This document shows, one piece after another, positions 1,996-34,701 of a stretch of 64,000 nucleotides of DNA. The stretch's first letter is position 1. Every line of letters starts with the position of its first letter. The position numbers were made by a program, and so were the translations under genes. The DNA comes from Alteromonas sp. (GTDB lineage: Bacteria; Margulisbacteria; Marinamargulisbacteria; UBA6595), in assembly GCA_964220215.1 (NCBI GenBank), contig CAXPTH010000021.1, positions 31,826 through 95,825 on the forward strand, given 5' to 3'. The notes below the pieces were generated by a model that was given only the letters and a program-made list of their open reading frames with translations, was not told the DNA's origin and did not search any database.

Positions 1996-4032
1996 ATGAA
2001 TTATCGACACATATTTCTATTGGCCCTTGGCTTCAGTATTGCGCTTCAGGGCACGACGTTGTCGGAAGTTGAGGTCATTGGGCATTCCCCAACATCCACC
2101 CAGGAACTACCTGGATCGGCCGACGTGATTAGCGAAGAAACCTTGCAGCGGGCCCAGCCCTTAACCACAGGGGAAGCCTTGATGCGGGTCCCTGGTGTAT
2201 CGGTACGCAACGAAGACGGGTTGGGCTTGCGGCCCAATATTAGCATTCGGGGGATCAATGGAAACCGAAGCAAAAAAGTATTATTGCTTGAAGATGGTCT
2301 CCCCATTGCCCTAGCACCATATGGTGAAAGCAGTGCGTATTATTCCCCACAAATTGACCGGATTGCACGCATTGAGGTCTTAAAAGGCAGTGGCAGCATT
2401 TTATATGGCCCCCAAACGATTGGAGGCGTGGTCAATTTTATCACCGCCGAGCCCCCAAGCAGCCGAACGGTCAAAACAACCCTAGCCATGAGTAGTTTTG
2501 ATACCAATAAGGCTCAGGTTCAATACGGAAACCGATGGGGGGATCACGGACTCTTGGTCAATTACTTGCGCCGATCCGGCCAAGGGTTCCGAAGCCCCAT
2601 GCCCTTTGACATTCACGATGTAAGCATTAAATATGGCCTTACCCAGTCGGAGCGATCTGAGCTGAGCCTGCGGACCCATTACTACACGGAGCGATCCGCA
2701 TCGACGTATACGGGACTGACCGAGCCTATGTTTCAAGAAGACCCCCGCCAAAACCCCGCCATTTATGACCGATTGTATGTGGAACGAGCGGGTATTCGCC
2801 TCGGGCATCGGTATTATACAGACTCCGCCTTAATTAACACGGCCGTTTATGGCTACCACACCAGCCGAAATTGGTGGCGACAAAAGTTTCATCGATCCAA
2901 TACCGGTGTACTTACACCTTTAATGACAAACGAAGGCAACAATCGGTACTACACCGTTGCCGGATTGGAAAACCGCATTGAGTGGGATGCATTAACCGTT
3001 GGCGCACGCGTGCACCACGAATTTGAAGACAGAAAAAAAATTAAAGGTTCATCTCCAACTGCTCGCAGTGGCAATCTAAACAGCCATGAGCACCGCAGTA
3101 CCGATGCCGTGGCCACCTATGCCCAGTACCGGTATGCTGTGAATGACCGCATCGACATTATCCCCGGGTTACGACTGGAACATTACCAGCAACGCCGGGC
3201 CATTTTAGTTTCAAGTGACCAGGCAAAACATAAAAGCGGGACCACCCAAACCACCGCCTGGATTCCTGGCATCGGTGCGACGGCCTATGTAACGGATCAG
3301 GTTCAAGTTTTTGGGGGCGTGCACCGCGGCTTTGCGCCGGCATCGTTTAGTGATGCGTTAAACAGTAATGGCCAAGACCAGCAACTCGACCCTGAAGAAA
3401 GCTGGAATTATGAAGCCGGTATCCGAGGCGCTTTATCTGAGCATACGCATTTTACCAGCACCGCCTTTTTTACGGACTACTTCAATCAAATCGTTGATAA
3501 TTCATCAGCCGTGTACACAAGAGCCAATGGTGGGCGCTCCCAGACCACCGGGGTTGAGCTTGGGCTTCAGTATGCCCGGCCATTACCCAATGGCTTTCGG
3601 CTCACGTCATCGGCTGGGCTAACCCTACAAACAGCGATTTATACGGCTGATTCTGAGTTCGATTCAGACACAGAAACTACTCATGCGAAATCTGGCAACC
3701 GGGTGCAGTACACACCCAGCGAGCAGTACCAAGCGTCTGTAGGGCTTGAAACCGCCAAAGGGTTTTCCGTGGAGGTCTCCGGTGTGCACACTGGCATGAT
3801 GTATTCGGATGCCGCCAATACTGAATCCGGCAGTGCCGATGGTCAAACGGGGGTTATTCCGGCGCACACCGTCTACAACATCAGTGCCAGCCAGGCCTTT
3901 ACCCCCCGACTCACCGGCTTTGCCAGCATTAAAAATCTATTTGATTTAAGCTACATAGCCTCCCGACACCCCACAGGCATTATGCCGGGCAATAGCCGTA
4001 TTATTGAAGCCGGGATAACCTACCACTATTAA
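1996..4032 (+). CDS. TonB-dependent receptor (FecA-like)
   Basis: Signal peptide; plug motifs PNISIRG, LLLEDG, RIEVLKGSGSILYGPQTIGGVVN; barrel motif LDPEESWNYEAG; NLFD near the C-terminus. Confidence 0.93.
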   Translation: MNYRHIFLLALGFSIALQGTTLSEVEVIGHSPTSTQELPGSADVISEETLQRAQPLTTGEALMRVPGVSVRNEDGLGLRPNISIRGINGNRSKKVLLLEDGLPIALAPYGESSAYYSPQIDRIARIEVLKGSGSILYGPQTIGGVVNFITAEPPSSRTVKTTLAMSSFDTNKAQVQYGNRWGDHGLLVNYLRRSGQGFRSPMPFDIHDVSIKYGLTQSERSELSLRTHYYTERSASTYTGLTEPMFQEDPRQNPAIYDRLYVERAGIRLGHRYYTDSALINTAVYGYHTSRNWWRQKFHRSNTGVLTPLMTNEGNNRYYTVAGLENRIEWDALTVGARVHHEFEDRKKIKGSSPTARSGNLNSHEHRSTDAVATYAQYRYAVNDRIDIIPGLRLEHYQQRRAILVSSDQAKHKSGTTQTTAWIPGIGATAYVTDQVQVFGGVHRGFAPASFSDALNSNGQDQQLDPEESWNYEAGIRGALSEHTHFTSTAFFTDYFNQIVDNSSAVYTRANGGRSQTTGVELGLQYARPLPNGFRLTSSAGLTLQTAIYTADSEFDSDTETTHAKSGNRVQYTPSEQYQASVGLETAKGFSVEVSGVHTGMMYSDAANTESGSADGQTGVIPAHTVYNISASQAFTPRLTGFASIKNLFDLSYIASRHPTGIMPGNSRIIEAGITYHY

Positions 4033-5555: not shown

Positions 5556-6181
5556 CCCTTACGCTTTCGTAAAAAAACCTCACGCGTTTCGCTTTGTAAA
5601 AACCGATTGGTTTGCTTTTGATTGCCCCAGGTATCCGTGGGTGTGGGGCCATAGTCATGCCCGGGGTAGATCACCGTATCATCGGGCAAGGGCCACAGGG
5701 TTTCGAATAACGCCGTATAGAGCTGCGCCACATCGCTATGGGGAAAATCCGCACGACCACACCCATCCACAAACACAGTATCCCCGGTGATCAACTGCTT
5801 CCCTAGTTGATAACACACCCCGCCGGGGGAATGACCCGGTGTATGCAATACCGCAATGGTATGCCCCGCAAAGGGTATCGTTGCCCCCACAGCCAATCGA
5901 TTCAAAACCATGGGAACAGGCGGATCATAGTGGGCGTACTCCGAAATATAGACAGGTACCTTGTTCAATGCCAGACACTCCGGCACACCCGATACATGAT
6001 CATAATGCTCATGGGTCAACAAAATCCCCACAACCGTTAACCCATGCTGAGTCACAATCGCTTGAAGCTCCGGAATGTCCCAAGCCGGATCCACAATAAG
6101 CGCCTCAGACCCCGACTGAATCACATATTGCATATTGCCCATCGGCCCCGCCCAATGGGTATGAATCACACAATCACTCAT
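5552..6181 (-). CDS. MBL-fold metallohydrolase (glyoxalase II-like)
   Basis: THEHYDHV, HTPGHSPG, TGDTVF, YPGHDY. Confidence 0.9.
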   Translation of the reverse strand: MSDCVIHTHWAGPMGNMQYVIQSGSEALIVDPAWDIPELQAIVTQHGLTVVGILLTHEHYDHVSGVPECLALNKVPVYISEYAHYDPPVPMVLNRLAVGATIPFAGHTIAVLHTPGHSPGGVCYQLGKQLITGDTVFVDGCGRADFPHSDVAQLYTALFETLWPLPDDTVIYPGHDYGPTPTDTWGNQKQTNRFLQSETREVFLRKRKG

Positions 6182-6810
6182 GCCAATTGCCGTTTTAAAT
6201 AGTTGTATTCTCGCAAAATATCCCGAACGTACGCGCGAGTCTTACGCGCCAAGCGTCGAGACGCCCGAACCGATGAATACCCCTGATAATACGACGCCAA
6301 CGCCATGGTATTCACTTCTGCATGGCCGGCCCAATTGTTGCGCATTTGGGTGAAATACGCCACGGTTCCGGATACATTTTGCCGAATATCAAACGGATCG
6401 GTAATCCCCAAAAGCTCGTAGTTAAAATCTTTAATCTGGCCCAAGCCTCGGGCCGATGTTGCGCTGACAGCATACCGATTAAACCCCGACTCGCGCGCAA
6501 TCAAGGCCGCAATTAACTTGGGATCCACCGAATAGGTTCGGCTATAATCCACAATAGCCTGCGCAATGCGCCGGGCTTCTTCATACTCAACGGTGGTATA
6601 CCGGTCGGTTATATACGTGTAGATAACCTCAAAATCAGCCTCAAATTGCTGCAACGATTTGCCATAGTCATTGGACGTGCGCGGTGTTGGGGATGCGGTT
6701 GATTGCGTCGATTGGGATACTGCCGGGGCAGAATCTCGCACATCGTTTGGGGTCTTGTTCCCCCCAAGCAATAAATACAAAATAACAATGGCAACCGGAA
6801 CTATTGCCAT
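6178..6810 (-). CDS. SLT-domain lytic transglycosylase with N-terminal anchor
   Basis: ARESGF (catalytic Glu), GLGQI, ALASY, TRAYV. Confidence 0.85.
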   Translation of the reverse strand: MAIVPVAIVILYLLLGGNKTPNDVRDSAPAVSQSTQSTASPTPRTSNDYGKSLQQFEADFEVIYTYITDRYTTVEYEEARRIAQAIVDYSRTYSVDPKLIAALIARESGFNRYAVSATSARGLGQIKDFNYELLGITDPFDIRQNVSGTVAYFTQMRNNWAGHAEVNTMALASYYQGYSSVRASRRLARKTRAYVRDILREYNYLKRQLA

Positions 6811-7940
6811 GCTTGAACCACCGTTTGAATATAGGCATCAATGCCGCTGAGCGGCACCTGAGTACTGGCACGGGATCGCCGATCAATCACCTCAACCGCC
6901 TGGGCTTCGATATGCTTGCCCACCACAACTTGAAGGGGATAGCCAATCAAATTGGCATCTTTAAACTTAGCCCCCACAGAGCTATCTCGATCATCCAACA
7001 CAACCGAATATTGGGCGTTTAATCGATCATACAACGCCTGAGCTTCCGTCATTTGCGTGGTGTTTTTGGTATTGGCTACAATGATCACCAACTGAAACGG
7101 CGCAACGGCTGGCGGCCAACACATGCCATCCGCATCGTGATGCGCTTCAATAATCGCTGCCATGGTCCGGCCAATGCCAATGCCATAACAGCCCATAAAA
7201 AACGGTTGTTGCTGCCCATTGCTGGCATGAAACTCAGCCTGCATGGGCGCTGAATACACATGACCCAGTTTAAAAATATGCCCCAATTCAATGGGCTCCT
7301 CGGTTTGTGTGACAAATTCAGCCGATTGATCCCCCCCAATGGCGCCCGAATCAGCCGGTACACAGGTGGTGGCCAATCCAAGCGCTTCAAATAATGCATG
7401 GTAAATCCCCATCATGGTATCGTACTGACGGTCCAAACACTCGGCTGTTGCATGAAATGAGTACGCATCTTTCATGCTAAACTCACGCCCACGCATGAGC
7501 CCCGACCGAGGCCGAATTTCATCCCGAAACTTAGTCTGAATTTGATACAAAGTCACGGGCAATTGTTTGTAGGATCGAATGCCGTAACTGGCCAACGAAC
7601 AAATCACTTCCTCATGGGTTGGCCCCAAACAAAAGTCATTGTTGTGCCGATCTACAATACGAAACAACTCCGGACCATATTTATCCCAGCGGCCCGATTG
7701 CTGCCAAAGCCCACTGGGAATTAACACCGGCAAGAGCACTTCTTGTGCGACGGGGTCGAGATACTGGCGAACGATGGCTTCAATTCGCTTGAGCACACGC
7801 ACGCCCATGGGCAAATAACTATAGATTCCGGCGGATATTTGATGAATGAGCCCAGCCCGAATCATCAGCTGGTGACTGGGCATAACGGCATCGTTGGGTG
7901 CCTCTTTTAATGTTGGACAAAACAACTGTGTTGCACGCAT
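6801..7940 (-). CDS. proS: Proline--tRNA ligase lacking the INS editing domain
   Basis: LGPTHEE, KFRDEIRPR, MKDAYSF, IELGHIFKLG, MGCYGIGIGR; ATG 7940 chosen as start. Confidence 0.93.
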   Translation of the reverse strand: MRATQLFCPTLKEAPNDAVMPSHQLMIRAGLIHQISAGIYSYLPMGVRVLKRIEAIVRQYLDPVAQEVLLPVLIPSGLWQQSGRWDKYGPELFRIVDRHNNDFCLGPTHEEVICSLASYGIRSYKQLPVTLYQIQTKFRDEIRPRSGLMRGREFSMKDAYSFHATAECLDRQYDTMMGIYHALFEALGLATTCVPADSGAIGGDQSAEFVTQTEEPIELGHIFKLGHVYSAPMQAEFHASNGQQQPFFMGCYGIGIGRTMAAIIEAHHDADGMCWPPAVAPFQLVIIVANTKNTTQMTEAQALYDRLNAQYSVVLDDRDSSVGAKFKDANLIGYPLQVVVGKHIEAQAVEVIDRRSRASTQVPLSGIDAYIQTVVQAWQ

Positions 7941-21110: not shown

Positions 21111-21596
21111 TTACGACCAACGCGGCCAAATCTCTCGCTTATTGGCATTAAATAGCGAAAACACTAAGTCCTCACACAGTCTTGAATCGCTCAAATACCC
21201 CTGGTAGCCATTCTCAAAGCTACCGGTATTATTCATTATTTTATTAAAAATTAATTCAACCATTGTATTAAACTCATGATCTGGCATTGTTTTGGGGCCT
21301 TCCTGACGCACGCAGTTTTCAATGATTAATTTAATCGCCTGAGTGCTTAAAGTATTACTCAGTGCTTGTGTTGAATATTGTACCGGGATCGGATTCGATA
21401 GCGGTTGCAACGAAAAAGCTCCCGATTCGGACTGTACTTCGGACTGTACTCCAGACTGCACTTCGGACTGTACTTCAATCGACGTACATGGCTTATAGAC
21501 TCGATGATTTCGGATACGTTTAGCCCCCCCCTTGGGCATACCCTTAGGGGCTGCTATAGGCACTGATGGCTTAAATGAGTTAGATACGCTTGGCAT
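21111..21596 (-). CDS. Orphan hypothetical protein with EVQS repeats
   Basis: 161-aa ORF filling the intergenic gap; no family recognised. Confidence 0.5.
   Translation of the reverse strand: MPSVSNSFKPSVPIAAPKGMPKGGAKRIRNHRVYKPCTSIEVQSEVQSGVQSEVQSESGAFSLQPLSNPIPVQYSTQALSNTLSTQAIKLIIENCVRQEGPKTMPDHEFNTMVELIFNKIMNNTGSFENGYQGYLSDSRLCEDLVFSLFNANKREIWPRWS
21426..21476. repeat. 12-bp tandem repeat TTCGGACTGTAC x4 (one variant copy)
   Basis: Read directly; encodes EVQS/GVQS on the minus strand. Confidence 0.9.
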
Positions 21597-23168: not shown

Positions 23169-23989
23169 CCAGTTTATTCATTGTTTGCCTATTTACTGGC
23201 TTAATTCATTTAACTGAAAGTTTGGTTTATTCGTTTCGATTGGCGGGCATCCGAACCCGACAATTGGCCATTGCCCTGTCTTTTGTTACTTCGACGCTAC
23301 TGGTATCTCGATTGTCAAACTTATTTCAAGCGCCGTTGTTGGGCGCCATGGTGGACCGGGCGATTTTAAACCAAGCGGCACCCACCCTGGCCCTCACCTT
23401 TCGGATCGTGATTCTTGCGGCAACCCTGGGGGCCTTGATCGGCCTGATGCTGACACCAACGGCCGTTCGGGTATTTCAAACAGCCGTTGTGTCGTTTCGC
23501 CAACACGGATCGATTATTCGACTGATGCTTAAACTCCGGCATGGGCGCACGTGGACACGGCTCTGGCATCAGTGCCAACGCCCCAAATTTCGCCCAATGC
23601 TTGCGCTACTGGCCCGGTGGCGCTATTTACCCAAGTCCTTTTTATACCTTAATATTTTTGTCACAGCCATCTATACGATTGGGGTTTTATGCGCCCTGTA
23701 TGCGGGAGCCTTGTTGCCTGAATTCCGAGCAACGGCCATTCAATTATCGGGATTAATTAATGGCATGGCAACGATCTTGCTGACGCTCTTTGTGGACCCT
23801 GCCGGTGCCCGAATCACAGACCAAACCTTTCACAATCATCGCCCCGAAGCCGATGTCAAAGCCACGATTGTGTACTTGCTACTGGGTCGACTCATCGGCA
23901 CGGCCATGGTTGCCCAGCTCCTGTTTTTGCCCTTTAGTCATTATTTAGCGACGGTAACCCGGTGGCTTTCCACCTGGTTGGTTCTATGA
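23165..23989 (+). CDS. amj: Amj-family lipid II flippase (DUF2837)
   Basis: RLAGIRT..LA, VSRLSNLFQAP, RATAIQLSGLINGMATILLTLFVDP. Confidence 0.8.
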   Translation: MTSLFIVCLFTGLIHLTESLVYSFRLAGIRTRQLAIALSFVTSTLLVSRLSNLFQAPLLGAMVDRAILNQAAPTLALTFRIVILAATLGALIGLMLTPTAVRVFQTAVVSFRQHGSIIRLMLKLRHGRTWTRLWHQCQRPKFRPMLALLARWRYLPKSFLYLNIFVTAIYTIGVLCALYAGALLPEFRATAIQLSGLINGMATILLTLFVDPAGARITDQTFHNHRPEADVKATIVYLLLGRLIGTAMVAQLLFLPFSHYLATVTRWLSTWLVL

Positions 23990-25956
23990 TTACCAACCCC
24001 TTGGCCTATACCGAAGCCATTCATCAGTTAATTGCGTATACCCTGGCCTATGAATTGGGTACACCAATGGTATCGGATGCGGCGTATGATCAGCTGTATC
24101 AACAAGTTCAACTGTATGAACGCAACAACCCCACCCACATTGCCGAAAACTCCCCCACCCAAACATTTCCCCACACCAATTTATTCCAGCCCTTTCAGCA
24201 TGATCCCAACACCCCCATGATCTCCTTGGCCAATGCCTACACGCGGGATGATTTGACTGCGTTTGACACCCGTATCAAAAAAACCATTCAAGCGCCGGTC
24301 ACCTACTGCCTAGAGCCCAAGCTAGACGGGGTGGCCGTCTCCGTGCATTACGACGCTGGGCGATTGCGTGTGGCCGCCACGCGTGGCAACGGCACCCAGG
24401 GGGACGTGATTACCGCCCATGTTCGAACCATTGATCATTTACCCAAAACGCTACCCGAACCCGTGACCCTGGAATGTCGGGGTGAGTTGTTTATGACCCA
24501 TGCGGACTTTCACGACCTAAATGCACGCAGCGACACCCCCTTTTCAAACCCACGCAATACGGTTGCGGGCACATTGCGACAATTGGATCCGGCGGTCAGC
24601 CAAGACCGGCGACTGTCGATTATCATCTACCAAGGCCTGCCCCAAACGGGGCCATCGATTGACACGCATCATGCCATGATTCAGTGGTTAACCGAGTTGG
24701 GGCTTCCCACCAATCTGCCGCATGTGTCCGTGCACCATACGATTGAATCCGCCTATGCGGGGGTTCAAAATTTCTTTCAGCATGCATCGCTGGGCTATGA
24801 CACCGATGGGTGTGTGATTAAAGTCAATGAATTGGCCGCCCATGCCGAGCTGGGACGAACGGCCAAAAGTGTCCGGTGGGCGGTTGCCTACAAACCTGTG
24901 GCCAAGCGCGCCCTCACCACGGTCACAGCCATTGAGCCGCAGGTGGGTCGAACGGGGGTATTAACACCCGTGGCCCATCTGGAACCCGTGGCAGTTCAAG
25001 GCGTGGTTATTCAACGGGTCTCGTTATACAACTACGATGAAATTGAGCGCTTGAACATTCGTCCGGGGGATCGGGTTGAAGTGGCTCGTGCGGGGGATGT
25101 GATTCCCAAAATTATGGCCGTCGTTTGCCCCAGCTCGGATCCATTGCCCCCACTGCCCACTCAGTGCCCGGTATGTTCCAGCGATGTCCTTCACGATGGG
25201 GCGGCGTTGCGGTGCCCCAATGTGGGCTGCTTGGCCCAGCTCAAGGCCCGCCTCACCCACTACGCAAGTCGGGATGCGCTGAATATTGATGGGTTGGGAC
25301 CGGCCATTATTGAGCAATTGGTGGATACCCAGTTGGTGCATCGATTATGCGACTTATACACGGTGTCGGTGGACCAATTCATGCAGTTGGATAAGTTGGC
25401 CGAAAAATCAAGCCGGCAGTTGGTGGATGCGATTGCGGCCACCCAAACGCCCACCTTGGGCACGTTTTTATATGCCATGGGCTTGCCGGGTGTGGGAGCA
25501 ACCGTAGCGCGGCAATTGGCCCACCACTTTCAAACCCTGGATGCCCTATTGGCCACCCAGGCTGAGGCGTTGGTTGAATTGGACGGCATTGGGGAGCGGC
25601 TGGCCAGCGCCATTGTCAGCCAATTGCCAACCCTGCGTCAGGTATCCGATGAACTGTATGCGGTAGGCCTTCGAATTCAATCCCCCACAGCATCAACCCC
25701 TACGCCAGAGACACCGTTTACCAATAAAACCGTGGTGATTACCGGAACATTGGCCACCCTAAGCCGCAAAGACGCTGAGGCGATGGTGCTAAACTTGGGG
25801 GGACAGATCGGCCAAACCGTGAGCAAAAAAACCGATATCGTGGTGGTTGGCGAATCCGCCGGAAGCAAAGCCAAAAAAGCCGCCGATCTGCAAGCCGCCG
25901 GGGTTCCTATCGTCATCTGGGATGACGCAACGTTTTGTCAGAAACTAAACAGTTAA
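23986..25956 (+). CDS. ligA: NAD-dependent DNA ligase
   Basis: EPKLDG, TRGNG, NPRN, QVGRTG, AGDVIP, Zn finger, HhH and BRCT domains. Confidence 0.96.
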   Translation: MITNPLAYTEAIHQLIAYTLAYELGTPMVSDAAYDQLYQQVQLYERNNPTHIAENSPTQTFPHTNLFQPFQHDPNTPMISLANAYTRDDLTAFDTRIKKTIQAPVTYCLEPKLDGVAVSVHYDAGRLRVAATRGNGTQGDVITAHVRTIDHLPKTLPEPVTLECRGELFMTHADFHDLNARSDTPFSNPRNTVAGTLRQLDPAVSQDRRLSIIIYQGLPQTGPSIDTHHAMIQWLTELGLPTNLPHVSVHHTIESAYAGVQNFFQHASLGYDTDGCVIKVNELAAHAELGRTAKSVRWAVAYKPVAKRALTTVTAIEPQVGRTGVLTPVAHLEPVAVQGVVIQRVSLYNYDEIERLNIRPGDRVEVARAGDVIPKIMAVVCPSSDPLPPLPTQCPVCSSDVLHDGAALRCPNVGCLAQLKARLTHYASRDALNIDGLGPAIIEQLVDTQLVHRLCDLYTVSVDQFMQLDKLAEKSSRQLVDAIAATQTPTLGTFLYAMGLPGVGATVARQLAHHFQTLDALLATQAEALVELDGIGERLASAIVSQLPTLRQVSDELYAVGLRIQSPTASTPTPETPFTNKTVVITGTLATLSRKDAEAMVLNLGGQIGQTVSKKTDIVVVGESAGSKAKKAADLQAAGVPIVIWDDATFCQKLNS

Positions 25957-26119
25957 GGAACCACTGCTCGTTACTATACGGCTTCCCCTTCGATACACTT
26001 GCTGCCGCAATCACTCAGGGAGCGGACTCACTTGTTTGAATTTTTCAATTTAAATCACCCGTTTCGCAACAGTCCCCATATTGGCTTAGTGTGTTGTGGC
26101 ATGGTGGGGGGGGTCATAG

Positions 26120-26158
26120 ACCACCCCGCCCTTCGGGCACCCCTCCACGGGAGGGGAA
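26120..26158 (+). repeat. REP-like GC-rich double hairpin, copy 1
   Basis: ACCACCCCGCCCTTCGGGCACCCCTCCACGGGAGGGGAA. Confidence 0.9.
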
Positions 26159-26284
26159 TTTTTTTTAAGTGGTACACCAACGTTAATCATTAACTCCCAC
26201 TCCATTTATTATTCCCATCCCATGGAGGGGATTTTTTTTAAGTGGTACACCAACGTTAATCATTAACTCCCACTTCATTTATTA
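26159..26284. repeat. Two copies of the ~74-bp tandem unit
   Basis: AAGTGGTACACCAACGTTAATCATTAACTCCCAC begins at 26167 and 26240. Confidence 0.92.
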
Positions 26285-26678
26285 TTCCCCTCCCATGGAG
26301 GGGTGCCCGAAGGGCGGGGTGGTTCTTTAAAACCGCCAAAACTGTATCCATATCTTGCAAAATGTCTTTTACGTTAATACGGATCACCGTTAATCCTAAA
26401 CCATTTAGAAACGCATCACGCTCGGCATCGTAATCTTCACGGCCTTGGTGTGAGGCGCCATCGGCTTCTATAACTAACGATTTTTCAGCACAATAGAAAT
26501 CAACAATATAGTGACCTATAATTTTTTGGCGATCAAAATCTAGCCCTTTTAATTGCTTTTTCTTGAGTTGATTCCACAGTAAGGCTTCGTGCAACATGCC
26601 CGATTTACGAAGTTCTTTAGCGCGTTCTTTGAGTTTGGGGTTATAGGGGAGAGATTTGTAGTTTTTTGTTTGTCTCAT
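26256..26678 (-). CDS. DUF559 / Vsr-like endonuclease domain protein
   Basis: LPYNPKLKERAKELRK, EALLW, FDRQKIIGHYIVDFYC, IEADGASH, DAERDAFL..LGL.VIR. Confidence 0.88.
   Translation of the reverse strand: MRQTKNYKSLPYNPKLKERAKELRKSGMLHEALLWNQLKKKQLKGLDFDRQKIIGHYIVDFYCAEKSLVIEADGASHQGREDYDAERDAFLNGLGLTVIRINVKDILQDMDTVLAVLKNHPALRAPLHGRGIINEVGVND
26285..26323 (-). repeat. REP-like double hairpin, inverted copy inside the DUF559 3' end
   Basis: TTCCCCTCCCATGGAGGGGTGCCCGAAGGGCGGGGTGGT is the reverse complement of copy 1 apart from one loop base. Confidence 0.9.
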
Positions 26679-26680
26679 AG

Positions 26681-26719
26681 ACCACCCCGCCCTTCGGGCA
26701 CCCCTCCACAGGAGGGGAA
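26681..26719 (+). repeat. REP-like double hairpin, copy 3, abutting the DUF559 start codon
   Basis: ACCACCCCGCCCTTCGGGCACCCCTCCACAGGAGGGGAA. Confidence 0.9.
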
Positions 26720-27024
26720 TTTTTTTTTAAGTGGTACACCAACGTTAATCATTAACTCCCACCCCATTTATTATTCCATCCCATGGAGGGGAATTTTTTT
26801 TAAGTGGTACACCAACGTTAATCATTAACTCCCACTCCATTTATTATTCTCCTCCGATGGAGGGGAATTTTTTTTTAAGTGGTACACCAACGTTAATCAT
26901 TAACTCCCACCCCATTTATTATTCCCTCCGATGGAGGGGAATTTTTTTTTAAGTGGTACACCAACGTTAATCATTAACTCCCACTCCATTTATTATTCCC
27001 TCCGATGGAGGGAAATTTTTTTTT
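26720..27024. repeat. Four tandem copies of a 73-75-bp multi-palindromic unit
   Basis: Core begins at 26729, 26802, 26877 and 26951; each unit ends in an (imperfect) CCTCC-N3-GGAGGG hairpin plus a T run. Confidence 0.95.
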
Positions 27025-27145
27025 GAATCCAGCTCGATGACCCACTGGAAACTGCGACTTTGCGCAGTGTGACGAATAAAAAAGGTCTTCTTCTGCACAG
27101 TGTGACGCGAGGCGGTTATTTTTAGTCCAGTCAATGCCATCCATG

Positions 27146-27751
27146 CTACAGGTCCTCCGTCTTGAATTCGCTATAGCCTTCGTAAAAATAACTCACATCA
27201 ATGCCCTCCATAAACAAAGAACGATCATCAACTTGGCCGGTGAGTGCGGTTTTTAGCAGGGCTTTGATTTCCAGATCTTTCACCACACTGCGCTCCATGG
27301 CTGAAAGATAGTTTTCTTTGTCGGCTTGGTTCCAATCGATAACCTGTTTTATTTCTTGCTTGAGTATTAAATCTAGCCAAATGCGAGTCGTTCGGCCATT
27401 TCCTTCTCTGAACGGGTGCGCAATATTCATTTCGACATATTTTTGGATGATCTCATCAAAATGACTCTGGGGCATAGCATCAATATGGTCTAAGGAAGCG
27501 CTAAGGTACATCACTGGCACAAATCGAAAGCTACCCTTTGAAATATTTACGTCGCGCATTTTTCCTGCAAAGTCGTAAATGTCTTCAAAAAGATAGGCAT
27601 GAATAGTAGATAGCCCCTTGAACGACCCGACTTCTACATTGTTGATATCACCAGAGTCAAAAAGCTGTTTGGCCTTTTGTTTGCTTATTTTTTCTTCTAA
27701 TTTGGCTAGTTCAACCTGATTCGTGATGCCTAATTTATTTTTCAGTATCAT
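27146..27751 (-). CDS. fic: Fic-domain AMPylase, class III (NmFic-like)
   Basis: Active site HPFREGNGRTTR; C-terminal inhibitory motif SYFYEG. Confidence 0.9.
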   Translation of the reverse strand: MILKNKLGITNQVELAKLEEKISKQKAKQLFDSGDINNVEVGSFKGLSTIHAYLFEDIYDFAGKMRDVNISKGSFRFVPVMYLSASLDHIDAMPQSHFDEIIQKYVEMNIAHPFREGNGRTTRIWLDLILKQEIKQVIDWNQADKENYLSAMERSVVKDLEIKALLKTALTGQVDDRSLFMEGIDVSYFYEGYSEFKTEDL

Positions 27752-27924
27752 GCGGGTTCTCCCTCAATCTCCACTACAATCGCATCAATATCCGCACGCA
27801 GGTGATAAAACAGGGTACCTAAAACATATTGCTTAAAATCCCAGCCATCAACAGCACCGCGAACATCGTTCGCAATTTTCCATATCTGGCTTTGTAGTGA
27901 GGCTCGTTGCTGTGTATTTGTCAT
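27748..27924 (-). pseudogene. hsdM: Internally deleted type I R-M methyltransferase (58 aa, N- and C-termini fused in frame)
   Basis: My translation: MTNTQQRASLQSQIWKIANDVRGAVDGWDFKQYVLGTLFY|HLRADIDAIVVEIEGEPA*; AAGGAG SD; ATGA overlap with fic. Confidence 0.85.
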
Positions 27925-28096
27925 GGTCTTTCTCCTTATTATTGGCTCGGTTGACTACCCGTTAGATTTAGCATGGCTTTAGACACCGCAATTTCCTAAA
28001 CATTATATCCTAGTTTACATTAAATAATTGGCAGTCGTAAGTGTTTTTACTTTAGCCTAAACGCGGCCCCAATCAGATTTTCAATCTGAACAAAAG

Positions 28097-33300: not shown

Positions 33301-33604
33301 AGGCTAACGCCAAGTTTAATGCTGTTTGCCCGCCTACCGTGGGCAATATGGCGCAGGGGCGCTCTTTTTGGATAATTTTTTCAACGACGGATACCGTCAG
33401 CGGTTCAATATAAGTTTGATCGGCCATAATGGGATCGGTCATAATGGTTGCGGGATTTGAGTTGACCAAGATAACGCGATAGCCTTCTTCTTTCAAGGCC
33501 TTGCAAGCTTGAGTCCCTGAATAGTCAAATTCACACGCCTGACCAATAACAATAGGGCCTGCGCCAATCACTAAAATTGTATGAATGTCGGTTCGTTTTG
33601 GCAT
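30392..33604 (-). CDS. carB: Carbamoyl-phosphate synthase large subunit
   Basis: [36 protein letters not shown]. Confidence 0.98.
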
Positions 33605-33606
33605 AC

Positions 33607-34701
33607 TTATTGCACCACGGCGACTTGCATCGCTTGAATAAACTGATCAAAGAACCCAACACTATCGTGCGGGCCCGGTCCCGCTTCTGGGTGAAACTGA
33701 ACGGATCGAATCGACCCATCTTGGTTGCGAATACCCGCTACCGTTTGGTCATTCAGGTTGGTATGCGTAATCGAAAACCCAGCGGCAGCAATGCCATCGG
33801 GATCCACCGCAAACCCATGATTTTGGGCCGTAATTTCAATTTTGTTTCTTTCAACATTCCAAACCGGGTGATTGGAGCCATGGTGACCAAACGTTAGCTT
33901 ATACGTTTTAATACCATGCGCCAAGGCAATCAGTTGATGACCCAAGCAAATACCATAAATTGGCAATTTACCTCGCAAGGCTTGAATCAAGGTAATGACA
34001 CTCGTCACCGGCTCTGGATCGCCCGGTCCGTTTGAAACCATCACCCCATTGTAATCCCCATTTAAAATCACATCTGGCGTTACTGTAACTGGGTAGATAT
34101 CACATAAACACCCATGCTGAGTCAAATAATTCAATGTAGAGGACTTAACGCCACAGTCCACAATCGCCACCCGGTACTGAACGGTATCCGGCTGATCCCA
34201 GGTATACGCCGCTGAGCAGCTGACTCGGCTGGCTAAATCCTGGCCTTCCACACTGGATACCAAGGGCAATCGACTCACTATAGTATCGACCGAATCGGTC
34301 GAATCGGTAATCACCGCCGGCTTTGCGCCAAACGCACGAATATACCGGGTTAGCGCACGGGTATCAACATCGGTAATGCCCCAAATACTAGACGCTGCCA
34401 AATACTCTTTCAAGGACTGCGTCGCTTGGTAATGCGAATACTGGTCCACATAATCACGAACAATTAGGGCACTCAGGTGGATGGCCTTGGACTCGCCATC
34501 CGCCGAATTAATGCCATAGTTGCCAATCATCGGGTAGGTCATAACAACCCCTTGGCCCGCATACGATGGATCCGTTAAAACTTCCTGGTACCCTTGCATC
34601 GCTGTATTAAAAACCAGCTCCGCAACCTGCTCGGATCCTGTCGAAAACGCCACCCCGTGAAATACCGTTTTGTCGTCAAATATGAGACGAACGGCACTCA
34701 C
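33607..34701 (-). CDS. carA: Carbamoyl-phosphate synthase small subunit
   Basis: FNTAM.GYQE.LTDPSY, SNGPGDP, GICLGHQ, QFHPEA; GTG start overlaps the glnII stop. Confidence 0.97.

Follow-up and report, generated by a model that had tools for sequence, protein, structure and literature searches.

The locus raises the question of whether a nuclease gene and the palindromic repeats among which it lies constitute a single mobile unit, and whether the nuclease acts on those repeats. The window, i.e. the whole 64,000-nt stretch of DNA that was analysed, contains such a gene, of the DUF559 family. The explanation that fits best, to which a probability of about 0.6 is given, is a cassette that crosses phyla and consists of the DUF559 gene and inverted BoxC-like repeats, a Vsr-fold analogue of Ssn-SRM and RAYT-REP. 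One DUF559 gene would be carried between two inverted BoxC-like repeats, and the three would move between phyla as a unit.

The gene (26256..26678, minus strand) is intact and encodes a Vsr-fold, PD-(D/E)xK nuclease of 140 amino acids. The three 39-nt repeat copies described in a sequence-only reading of the window are present at 26120-26158, 26285-26323 (inverted) and 26681-26719, with differences confined to the 3-nt loop; as delimited here, they span 26120..26158 (copy 1, plus strand), 26284..26323 (copy 2, minus strand) and 26681..26720 (copy 3, plus strand). The ATG of the gene lies, as had been pointed out, inside the hexamer TCATAG, which also precedes copy 1, and copy 1 with this adjoining start-codon hexamer (26114-26119) is a duplicate of copy 3. 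The gene is boxed by an inverted pair in which copy 3, the upstream arm, stops 2 nt short of the ATG and copy 2, the downstream arm, codes for the first part of the C-terminal tail. These 40-nt arms are 95% alike and constitute terminal inverted repeats. The hairpin arrangement that had been noted is real, but the conserved frame is formed by copies 2 and 3 and not by copies 1 and 3. In the closest homologs (L022, L146 and L147) one inverted arm is found on each side and the ATG follows a few bases after the upstream arm; the core unit, as judged from the sequences, is therefore copy 3, gene, copy 2. The long direct repeat that had been described around the gene (26114-26303 and 26675-26865) does match at 95.8% over 192 nt; it does not mark the ends of an element and, like the 74-nt arrays described below, is a local duplication.

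Downstream of the gene, 2.1 units of 73 nt (core hairpin plus spacer) form a tandem array at 26150..26303, and a second array of 4.2 units of 74 nt lies upstream at 26711..27024. The same layout was found on three independent metagenome contigs of the same species (L144, L145 and L209; proteins 94-98% identical), where the downstream array has 7 units (L144) versus 2 in the window and the upstream array 3 units (L145 and L209) versus 4. The array spacers are near-identical to each other and an Rfam search of the array region returned no match, so that a CRISPR-like or RNA reading of the arrays was dropped. Segments 27025-27145 and 26077-26113 and the 74-nt spacer had matches in conspecific contigs only. 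The first of these, 121 nt between fic and the array, contains a short imperfect direct repeat, and an ATG follows immediately after the stop codon of fic.

In contigs from all four runs searched, which belong to four studies and one of which is possibly the source sample, the gene is adjoined by repeat DNA on at least one side. That the duplication and the arrays are assembly artefacts is extremely improbable: contigs do break at the repeats, no single one from the four runs covers the entire stretch, and short reads leave the precise copy numbers uncertain, yet the repeat units are distinguishable by their own variants and recur in the same order, with other copy numbers, in independent assemblies. 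The arrays are accordingly real and variable between strains, and the long direct duplication, for which an assembly artefact had been named as a possible refutation, is shared by the three independent contigs. In run X1, though not in X5-X7, read depth over the gene was approximately double (22.9 versus 11.5-12.2), which may reflect the collapse of a duplicated gene. The claim that the end of the gene is supplied by repeat DNA holds for the window, where copy 2 and spacer DNA encode the final 21 residues and the stop codon, but the tail is not conserved in conspecific strains. In L144 and L145 the loop is one base longer, and the resulting frameshift leads to a tail that is shorter and of different sequence, in the frame also used by L022 and L023. 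The repeat-encoded tail is thus not a conserved part of the protein, and the importance attached to it earlier is not sustained.

The surroundings are those of a decayed type I restriction-modification operon; the features listed by the sequence-only reading were all present, but it had missed the hsdM, hsdR and IS remnants as well as the mirror-repeat third tract of the repeat. The conserved left border of the variable slot is ligA (23962..25956, plus strand). A second palindrome family, found also around a GIY-YIG gene on contig C14, has one copy here (25983..26021, plus strand); this copy, at least partly present in both congeners, supplies the stop codon of a deleted type I hsdR, whose last codons and stop remain at 26011..26048 (minus strand), where a long hsdR reading frame ends in congener G002. 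An isolated DDE IS end (26039..26076, plus strand) is joined to this hsdR tail through a 10-nt microhomology at 26039-26048; the corresponding transposase (DUF772/DDE_Tnp_1) is encoded on contig C7 and has an apparent frameshift near its end. Eleven related IS ends occur in the genome (the one in the window and others on contigs C6, C7, C8, C13, C14, C22 and C25). On the other side of the cassette, an intact Fic-family gene of 201 amino acids (27146..27751, minus strand; PADLOC model PDC-S04) is an operon passenger, and next to it an hsdM remnant (27748..27924, minus strand) retains the first 40 and last 18 codons on either side of an internal deletion. No hsdS is present in the operon remains at the locus. 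Over 27804-27970, runs X5, X6 and X7 yielded variant contigs. One of them, from X7, diverges from the window where hsdM is deleted and continues beyond that point, so that strains in which hsdM is longer are probably present alongside. Further to the left, at 21426-21476, a 12-nt tandem repeat of 4.2 copies lies within a 161-aa ORF.

The likely ancestral order is preserved at locus L023 as hsdM-fic-hsdS-cassette-gene-hsdR, and the cassette of the window would have arrived inside an operon of the form hsdM-fic-[hsdS]-cassette-...-hsdR that later collapsed. Being palindromic, the core hairpin doubles as a direct repeat, and slippage between cores would generate the 74-nt arrays. Very probably such slippage amplified the 74-nt unit and also placed a second copy of the upstream arm, including its ATG, downstream of the gene, which would have produced copy 1 and the 192-nt direct repeat, after which a second gene copy and most of hsdR would have been lost in deletions next to the IS end. 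The clean empty site downstream of ligA that had been suggested as a check was not found in the two congeners, which have other genes there: hsdM and hsdR at the two borders of an unassembled middle in G002, and a PLD-domain gene and a gap in G001. DUF559 is absent from the assemblies of both G002 and G001 (77% and 89% complete), and neither of the two other genomes of the genus of L022, the closest homolog, provided a matching empty site. A clean empty site for a gene-bearing cassette was thus not found at the compared loci, which counts against the best reading.

In the Pfam search the protein matched DUF559 (PF04480) with 116 bits against a cut-off of 20.6 and otherwise only MTES_1575; no GIY-YIG domain (cd10448) was detected in it by Pfam, and no HUH Y1 transposase was detected at the gene by Pfam or Foldseek. 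Its structure model is a confident single domain (pLDDT 90), for which Foldseek returned Neisseria NGO0050 (3HRL, E 2e-6) and the catalytic domain of I-Bth0305I (3R3P, E 6e-4), with Vsr (1VSR) only at E 0.11. The acidic and histidine residues of the catalytic site (Vsr/EDxHD type), E31, D60, E71, D73, H77 and D84, are invariant across 79 aligned sequences, the invariance of residues 56-63, D60 included, being partly forced by the pattern used to find the sequences. Compared with seven distant homologs, dN was approximately 0.23-0.30 and dS was 1.9 or saturated. A second DUF559 gene was not found by Pfam or a custom profile in the same assembly, which is 82% complete and has no contig below 5 kb.

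The pairing of gene and repeat was evaluated at the best 80 of 220 homologous loci found in genomes, of which 73 had full flanks and seven with short flanks were left out of the hairpin counts. The density of strict CCC...GGG hairpins was 3.3 and 2.7 per kb in the 250 nt next to the gene core and 0.04-0.22 per kb at distances above 500 nt (best 80 of 220 loci). Within 250 nt, 49/73 of these best loci had a hairpin on at least one side and 27/73 on both sides, versus 23/1091 control windows, which bears out the expectation that the flanks of DUF559 homologs are enriched in hairpins; ligA loci used as a control had 2 hairpins in 78.7 kb. The figures for Ssn that can be set against these are 71% and 42%, within 5-kb flanks, according to the main text of PMC11893778. 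The remaining 24/73 loci (best 80 of 220) have no strict hairpin, and at L028 fic is followed directly by a truncated DUF559 without hairpins; both observations count against the best reading.

Linkage of gene and repeat is also evident from the flanks themselves. A pooled set of 157 proteins came down to 142 distinct ones, 117 of them with full flanks; in 92/117 of these loci the upstream flank matches the downstream one, versus 20/117 after cross-pairing. The more alike two proteins are, the more similar are their flanks (Mantel rho 0.36, higher than in any of 999 permutations), and this also holds across phyla (13/48 pairs at 55% or higher protein identity versus 13/792 pairs below 45%). 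In a tree of 68 rows, which does not include L022, the window protein falls into a supported clade of five members from four phyla, together with a gammaproteobacterium, a spirochaete and two cyanobacteria, all five of which carry the same repeat as the window. The repeat subtype thus tracks the protein tree, as had been predicted, but covariation of this kind is expected from linkage alone and shows co-transfer and not recognition. The end of E. coli ycjD, whose product is 34% identical, is formed by a BoxC-like hairpin, and a near-consensus BoxC copy lies approximately 170 nt downstream, with none seen upstream; in some E. coli lineages ycjD replaces eefRABCD, as reported in the part of PMC12817139 that concerns this locus. 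No paper pairing DUF559 with these repeats was found in a literature search whose coverage mostly excluded subscription journals.

On its G-rich strand the repeat consists of the purine arm of the stem, a 12-nt loop, and then the mirror image of the arm with T opposite A; the 12-nt second loop is itself a hairpin. By the established triplet rules for purine-motif triplexes, seven canonical triplets are possible in all three copies. The third tract covaries with the stem: G stands opposite G in 59/75 and 45/59 cases and A or T opposite A in 70/80 and 52/59, in 155 hairpins from 83 loci that were anchored by the G-run only; some anchors are wrong, and the p-values are inflated by related loci. 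Even so, at least four types of stem occur, each with its own matched tail. A mirror third tract that covaries with the stem is the signature of the BoxC/PIT intrastrand-triplex repeats, and a triplex is predicted for the window repeat. The TM_ECO consensus had no match in 26001-27100 at up to 6 mismatches, and, with 12 nt, the loop is longer than either published search setting allows (1-6 and 0-10 nt); the repeat would thus work like the TM_ECO class without being filed there. The window repeat may also be similar to the RIME repeats of Rhizobium and the CIR repeats of Caulobacter. At one site shared by two close cyanobacteria (L025 and L026, downstream dimers near 3370-3490), the outer arms and the spacer are inverted with the core loops in place, which suggests template switching.

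Whether the repeats spread is a separate matter, on which the observations are mixed. The proposal of a non-HUH nuclease-plus-palindrome system is a sound analogy, a GIY-YIG case (Ssn) being described in the main text of PMC11893778, but the 39-mer is not spread in this genome: the 1.19-Mb assembly contains three copies, all at the locus, and no further copy at 10 or fewer mismatches. Across the five genomes with close homologs, the same repeat occurs in 22 and 22 (two cyanobacteria), 5, 2 and 1 copies. The lack of high-copy dispersal here and the 1 and 2 copies in two of the five close-homolog genomes count against spreading. In the host's class, at least 11 hairpins were found in 7/15 genomes with a strong DUF559 match versus 4/40 others (p 0.005), a modest link, since a reversed-pattern control leans the same way (p 0.052), kin are not independent, and the pattern misses some subtypes.

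A BoxC-like sister repeat is present in the same genome in 34 copies, which form 11 clusters, mostly inverted dimers with long spacers, on contigs C6, C8, C12, C18, C21, C27, C28 and C29; with 1 copy per congener, this points to a recent bloom. The sister subtype flanks DUF559 genes in genomes G014 and G007. Two observations made here count against the best reading, namely that the 34-copy family has no cognate DUF559 gene in its own assembly (82% complete) and that genome G005 has 24 sister-subtype copies and no DUF559 that was found. For four of the 11 sister clusters an empty-site comparison was made, of which one was clean, one had a copy or trace already in the congeners, and two lacked synteny. 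In the clean case (L250, contig C8, approximately 33550-34010, versus L273 on contig C6 of G001), the cluster lies between two divergent genes, the G001 site is empty, and an imperfect duplication of approximately 67 nt covers both start regions on either side of the insert. Among 11 clusters or regions, including the window and the GIY-YIG locus, nine had no flanking duplication above shuffles, one had a duplication of approximately 67 nt and one of approximately 190 nt; in the sister family no short target duplication was recognised, duplications under approximately 15 nt being invisible to the test, and the window flanks are rearranged. Long irregular duplications such as these, of which there are very few cases, fit break repair better than DDE transposition. 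The GIY-YIG gene on contig C14 (L254, approximately 5930-6830; Pfam 65 bits) is flanked by its own tandemly amplified palindromes and is probably an Ssn-type system in the same genome.

If the cassette works by analogy with Ssn, the DUF559 protein would bind its cognate repeat when the latter is single-stranded and folded, as a hairpin onto which the third G-tract probably folds back in a purine-motif triplex; it would nick nearby, as Ssn does at SRM repeats. Such recognition and nicking is considered probable. Host repair of the nicks might then copy, invert and amplify the repeats and occasionally move the cassette without a transposase, a route by which both could spread but to which rather less than even odds are assigned. 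More tentatively still, DUF559 may represent a very large family of structure-specific nucleases that read an intramolecular triplex in their own repeats, and may be the missing enzymes that generate BoxC/PIT-type repeats and disperse them among bacteria.

Among the other explanations, the one with most in its favour, although unlikely, is that DUF559 proteins are Vsr-like repair or restriction-accessory nucleases that do not act on the repeats, and that the latter are linked terminators, RNA-stability elements or recombination elements hitchhiking with the gene by way of defence loci. The fold is Vsr-like, and Caulobacter VsrA, the only genetically studied DUF559 protein, is interpreted in the pertinent sections of PMC12907096 as a T:G mismatch nuclease that damages DNA when the cytosine methylase is absent, an interpretation that counts against the best reading. 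In a neighbour scan that covered 92/145 neighbour pieces and 60/80 loci (best 80 of 220), 19/60 loci were beside or inside restriction-modification genes, as this explanation would have it, but the other 41/60 had different neighbours, e.g. thyA, polA, pnp and transporter operons. The protein has no match among the PADLOC models, and the gene in the window has no cytosine methylase beside it, its neighbours being fic and the hsdM and hsdR remnants. Ten of the 80 loci (best 80 of 220) lie inside reading frames of more than 300 codons, five of which are hsdR. In these five (L027, L084, L094, L097 and L101) DUF559 and its repeats are inserted in frame in type I hsdR, between the HSDR_N and helicase domains, with the frames intact, and repeats are thus retained where terminator action is impossible; nor would a terminator need the mirror tract that is conserved across subtypes.

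The in-frame hsdR insertions belong to more than one protein clade (L027 versus L084, L094, L097 and L101), and this repeated occupation of one hsdR region by two clades is what would be expected of a free-standing homing endonuclease that cuts cassette-free alleles (e.g. of hsdR or hsdS) and is copied by gene conversion, with the repeats protecting or marking the occupied allele. The closest characterised fold is indeed that of an EDxHD homing enzyme, I-Bth0305I, but the model of the window protein lacks a separate DNA-binding domain such as I-Bth0305I has (according to the enzyme description in PMC3239194), the insertion sites are many and unrelated, and no intron (Rfam) or intein family match (Pfam) was found; homing is the least probable of the three functional alternatives. 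Hardly more probable is that an unrelated transposase acts in trans on a non-autonomous element of which the repeats are the ends and DUF559 the cargo. A gene between inverted repeats does resemble a mobile cassette, gene-less repeat dimers exist, and the cassette has an IS end at a distance of 37 nt; the sequence of that IS end is unrelated to the repeat, however, no fixed short target duplication was seen in the 11 clusters above the detection limit of approximately 15 nt, and a lasting pairing with one repeat subtype across phyla is not expected of cargo. The main text of Holder et al. (PMC4666352) likewise reports no transposase remnants near BoxC/TM motifs.

The cassette reading would, if true, provide a function for a widespread DUF and mean that the Ssn/RAYT architecture has arisen in a third fold, after HUH and GIY-YIG; it would also imply nucleases with clade-dependent specificity, and the more tentative reading would add a naturally occurring enzyme that reads triplexes. 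For BoxC/PIT repeats, known since the 1990s, neither a protein partner nor a mode of dissemination has been established, according to the main text of PMC4666352, and with DUF559, a 14-kDa protein, as candidate partner enzyme their origin becomes testable. The window locus is a decayed, locally amplified example, the value of which lies in its close strain series and in a genome that has both DUF559 and GIY-YIG repeat systems.

The nearest known system is Ssn-SRM/NTS (Chenal et al. 2025, PMC11893778), for which the main text of that paper already demonstrates a non-HUH nuclease that cuts at the palindromes by which it is flanked. Shared features are a small single-domain nuclease gene within its own palindromes, found across phyla at similar rates, repeats that are also dispersed, and no transposase. 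Ssn is a GIY-YIG enzyme whereas the DUF559 protein is a Vsr-fold PD-(D/E)xK enzyme, and the main text has no occurrence of Vsr; the mirror third tract sets the DUF559 repeat apart from SRM as described there, and the activity of Ssn on single-stranded repeats has been shown experimentally whereas the DUF559-repeat relation is known here at sequence level. With BoxC/PIT/TM_ECO (Holder et al. 2015, PMC4666352) the window repeat shares the C-tract/G-tract hairpin followed by a mirror G-tract and local instability, as well as inverted dimers (in relatives, of two subtypes) and an adjoining DUF559 gene in the case of E. coli ycjD; it differs in not matching the TM_ECO consensus, in its seven triplets, and in having a hairpin as its 12-nt second loop. 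The main text of that paper, as distinct from its supplement of motif-adjoining genes, has no occurrence of nuclease and names no partner nuclease. From Vsr, Caulobacter VsrA and Neisseria NGO0050, the latter two being DUF559-type proteins with which fold and catalytic residues are shared, the window gene is set apart, as regards the Vsr repair endonuclease, by its lack of a neighbouring cytosine methylase; the VsrA paper (PMC12907096) treats its DUF559 protein as Vsr-like, and its pertinent sections have no occurrence of palindrom. The EDxHD homing endonucleases (I-Bth0305I, 3R3P) share the fold of the catalytic domain and the E-D-x-H-D residues, whereas DUF559 lacks an N-terminal DNA-binding domain, an intron or intein, and a single target gene. 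REP/REPIN/BIME sequences with RAYT (TnpA-REP) have in common with the locus the inverted palindromes around a gene, dimers with spacers, and tandem amplification. In contrast to RAYT-REP and REPINs, which show high-copy dispersal, only three copies occur here, and the DUF559 cassette has no HUH/Y1 transposase, carries a repeat without a GTAG or CGTC tag, and apparently crosses phyla.
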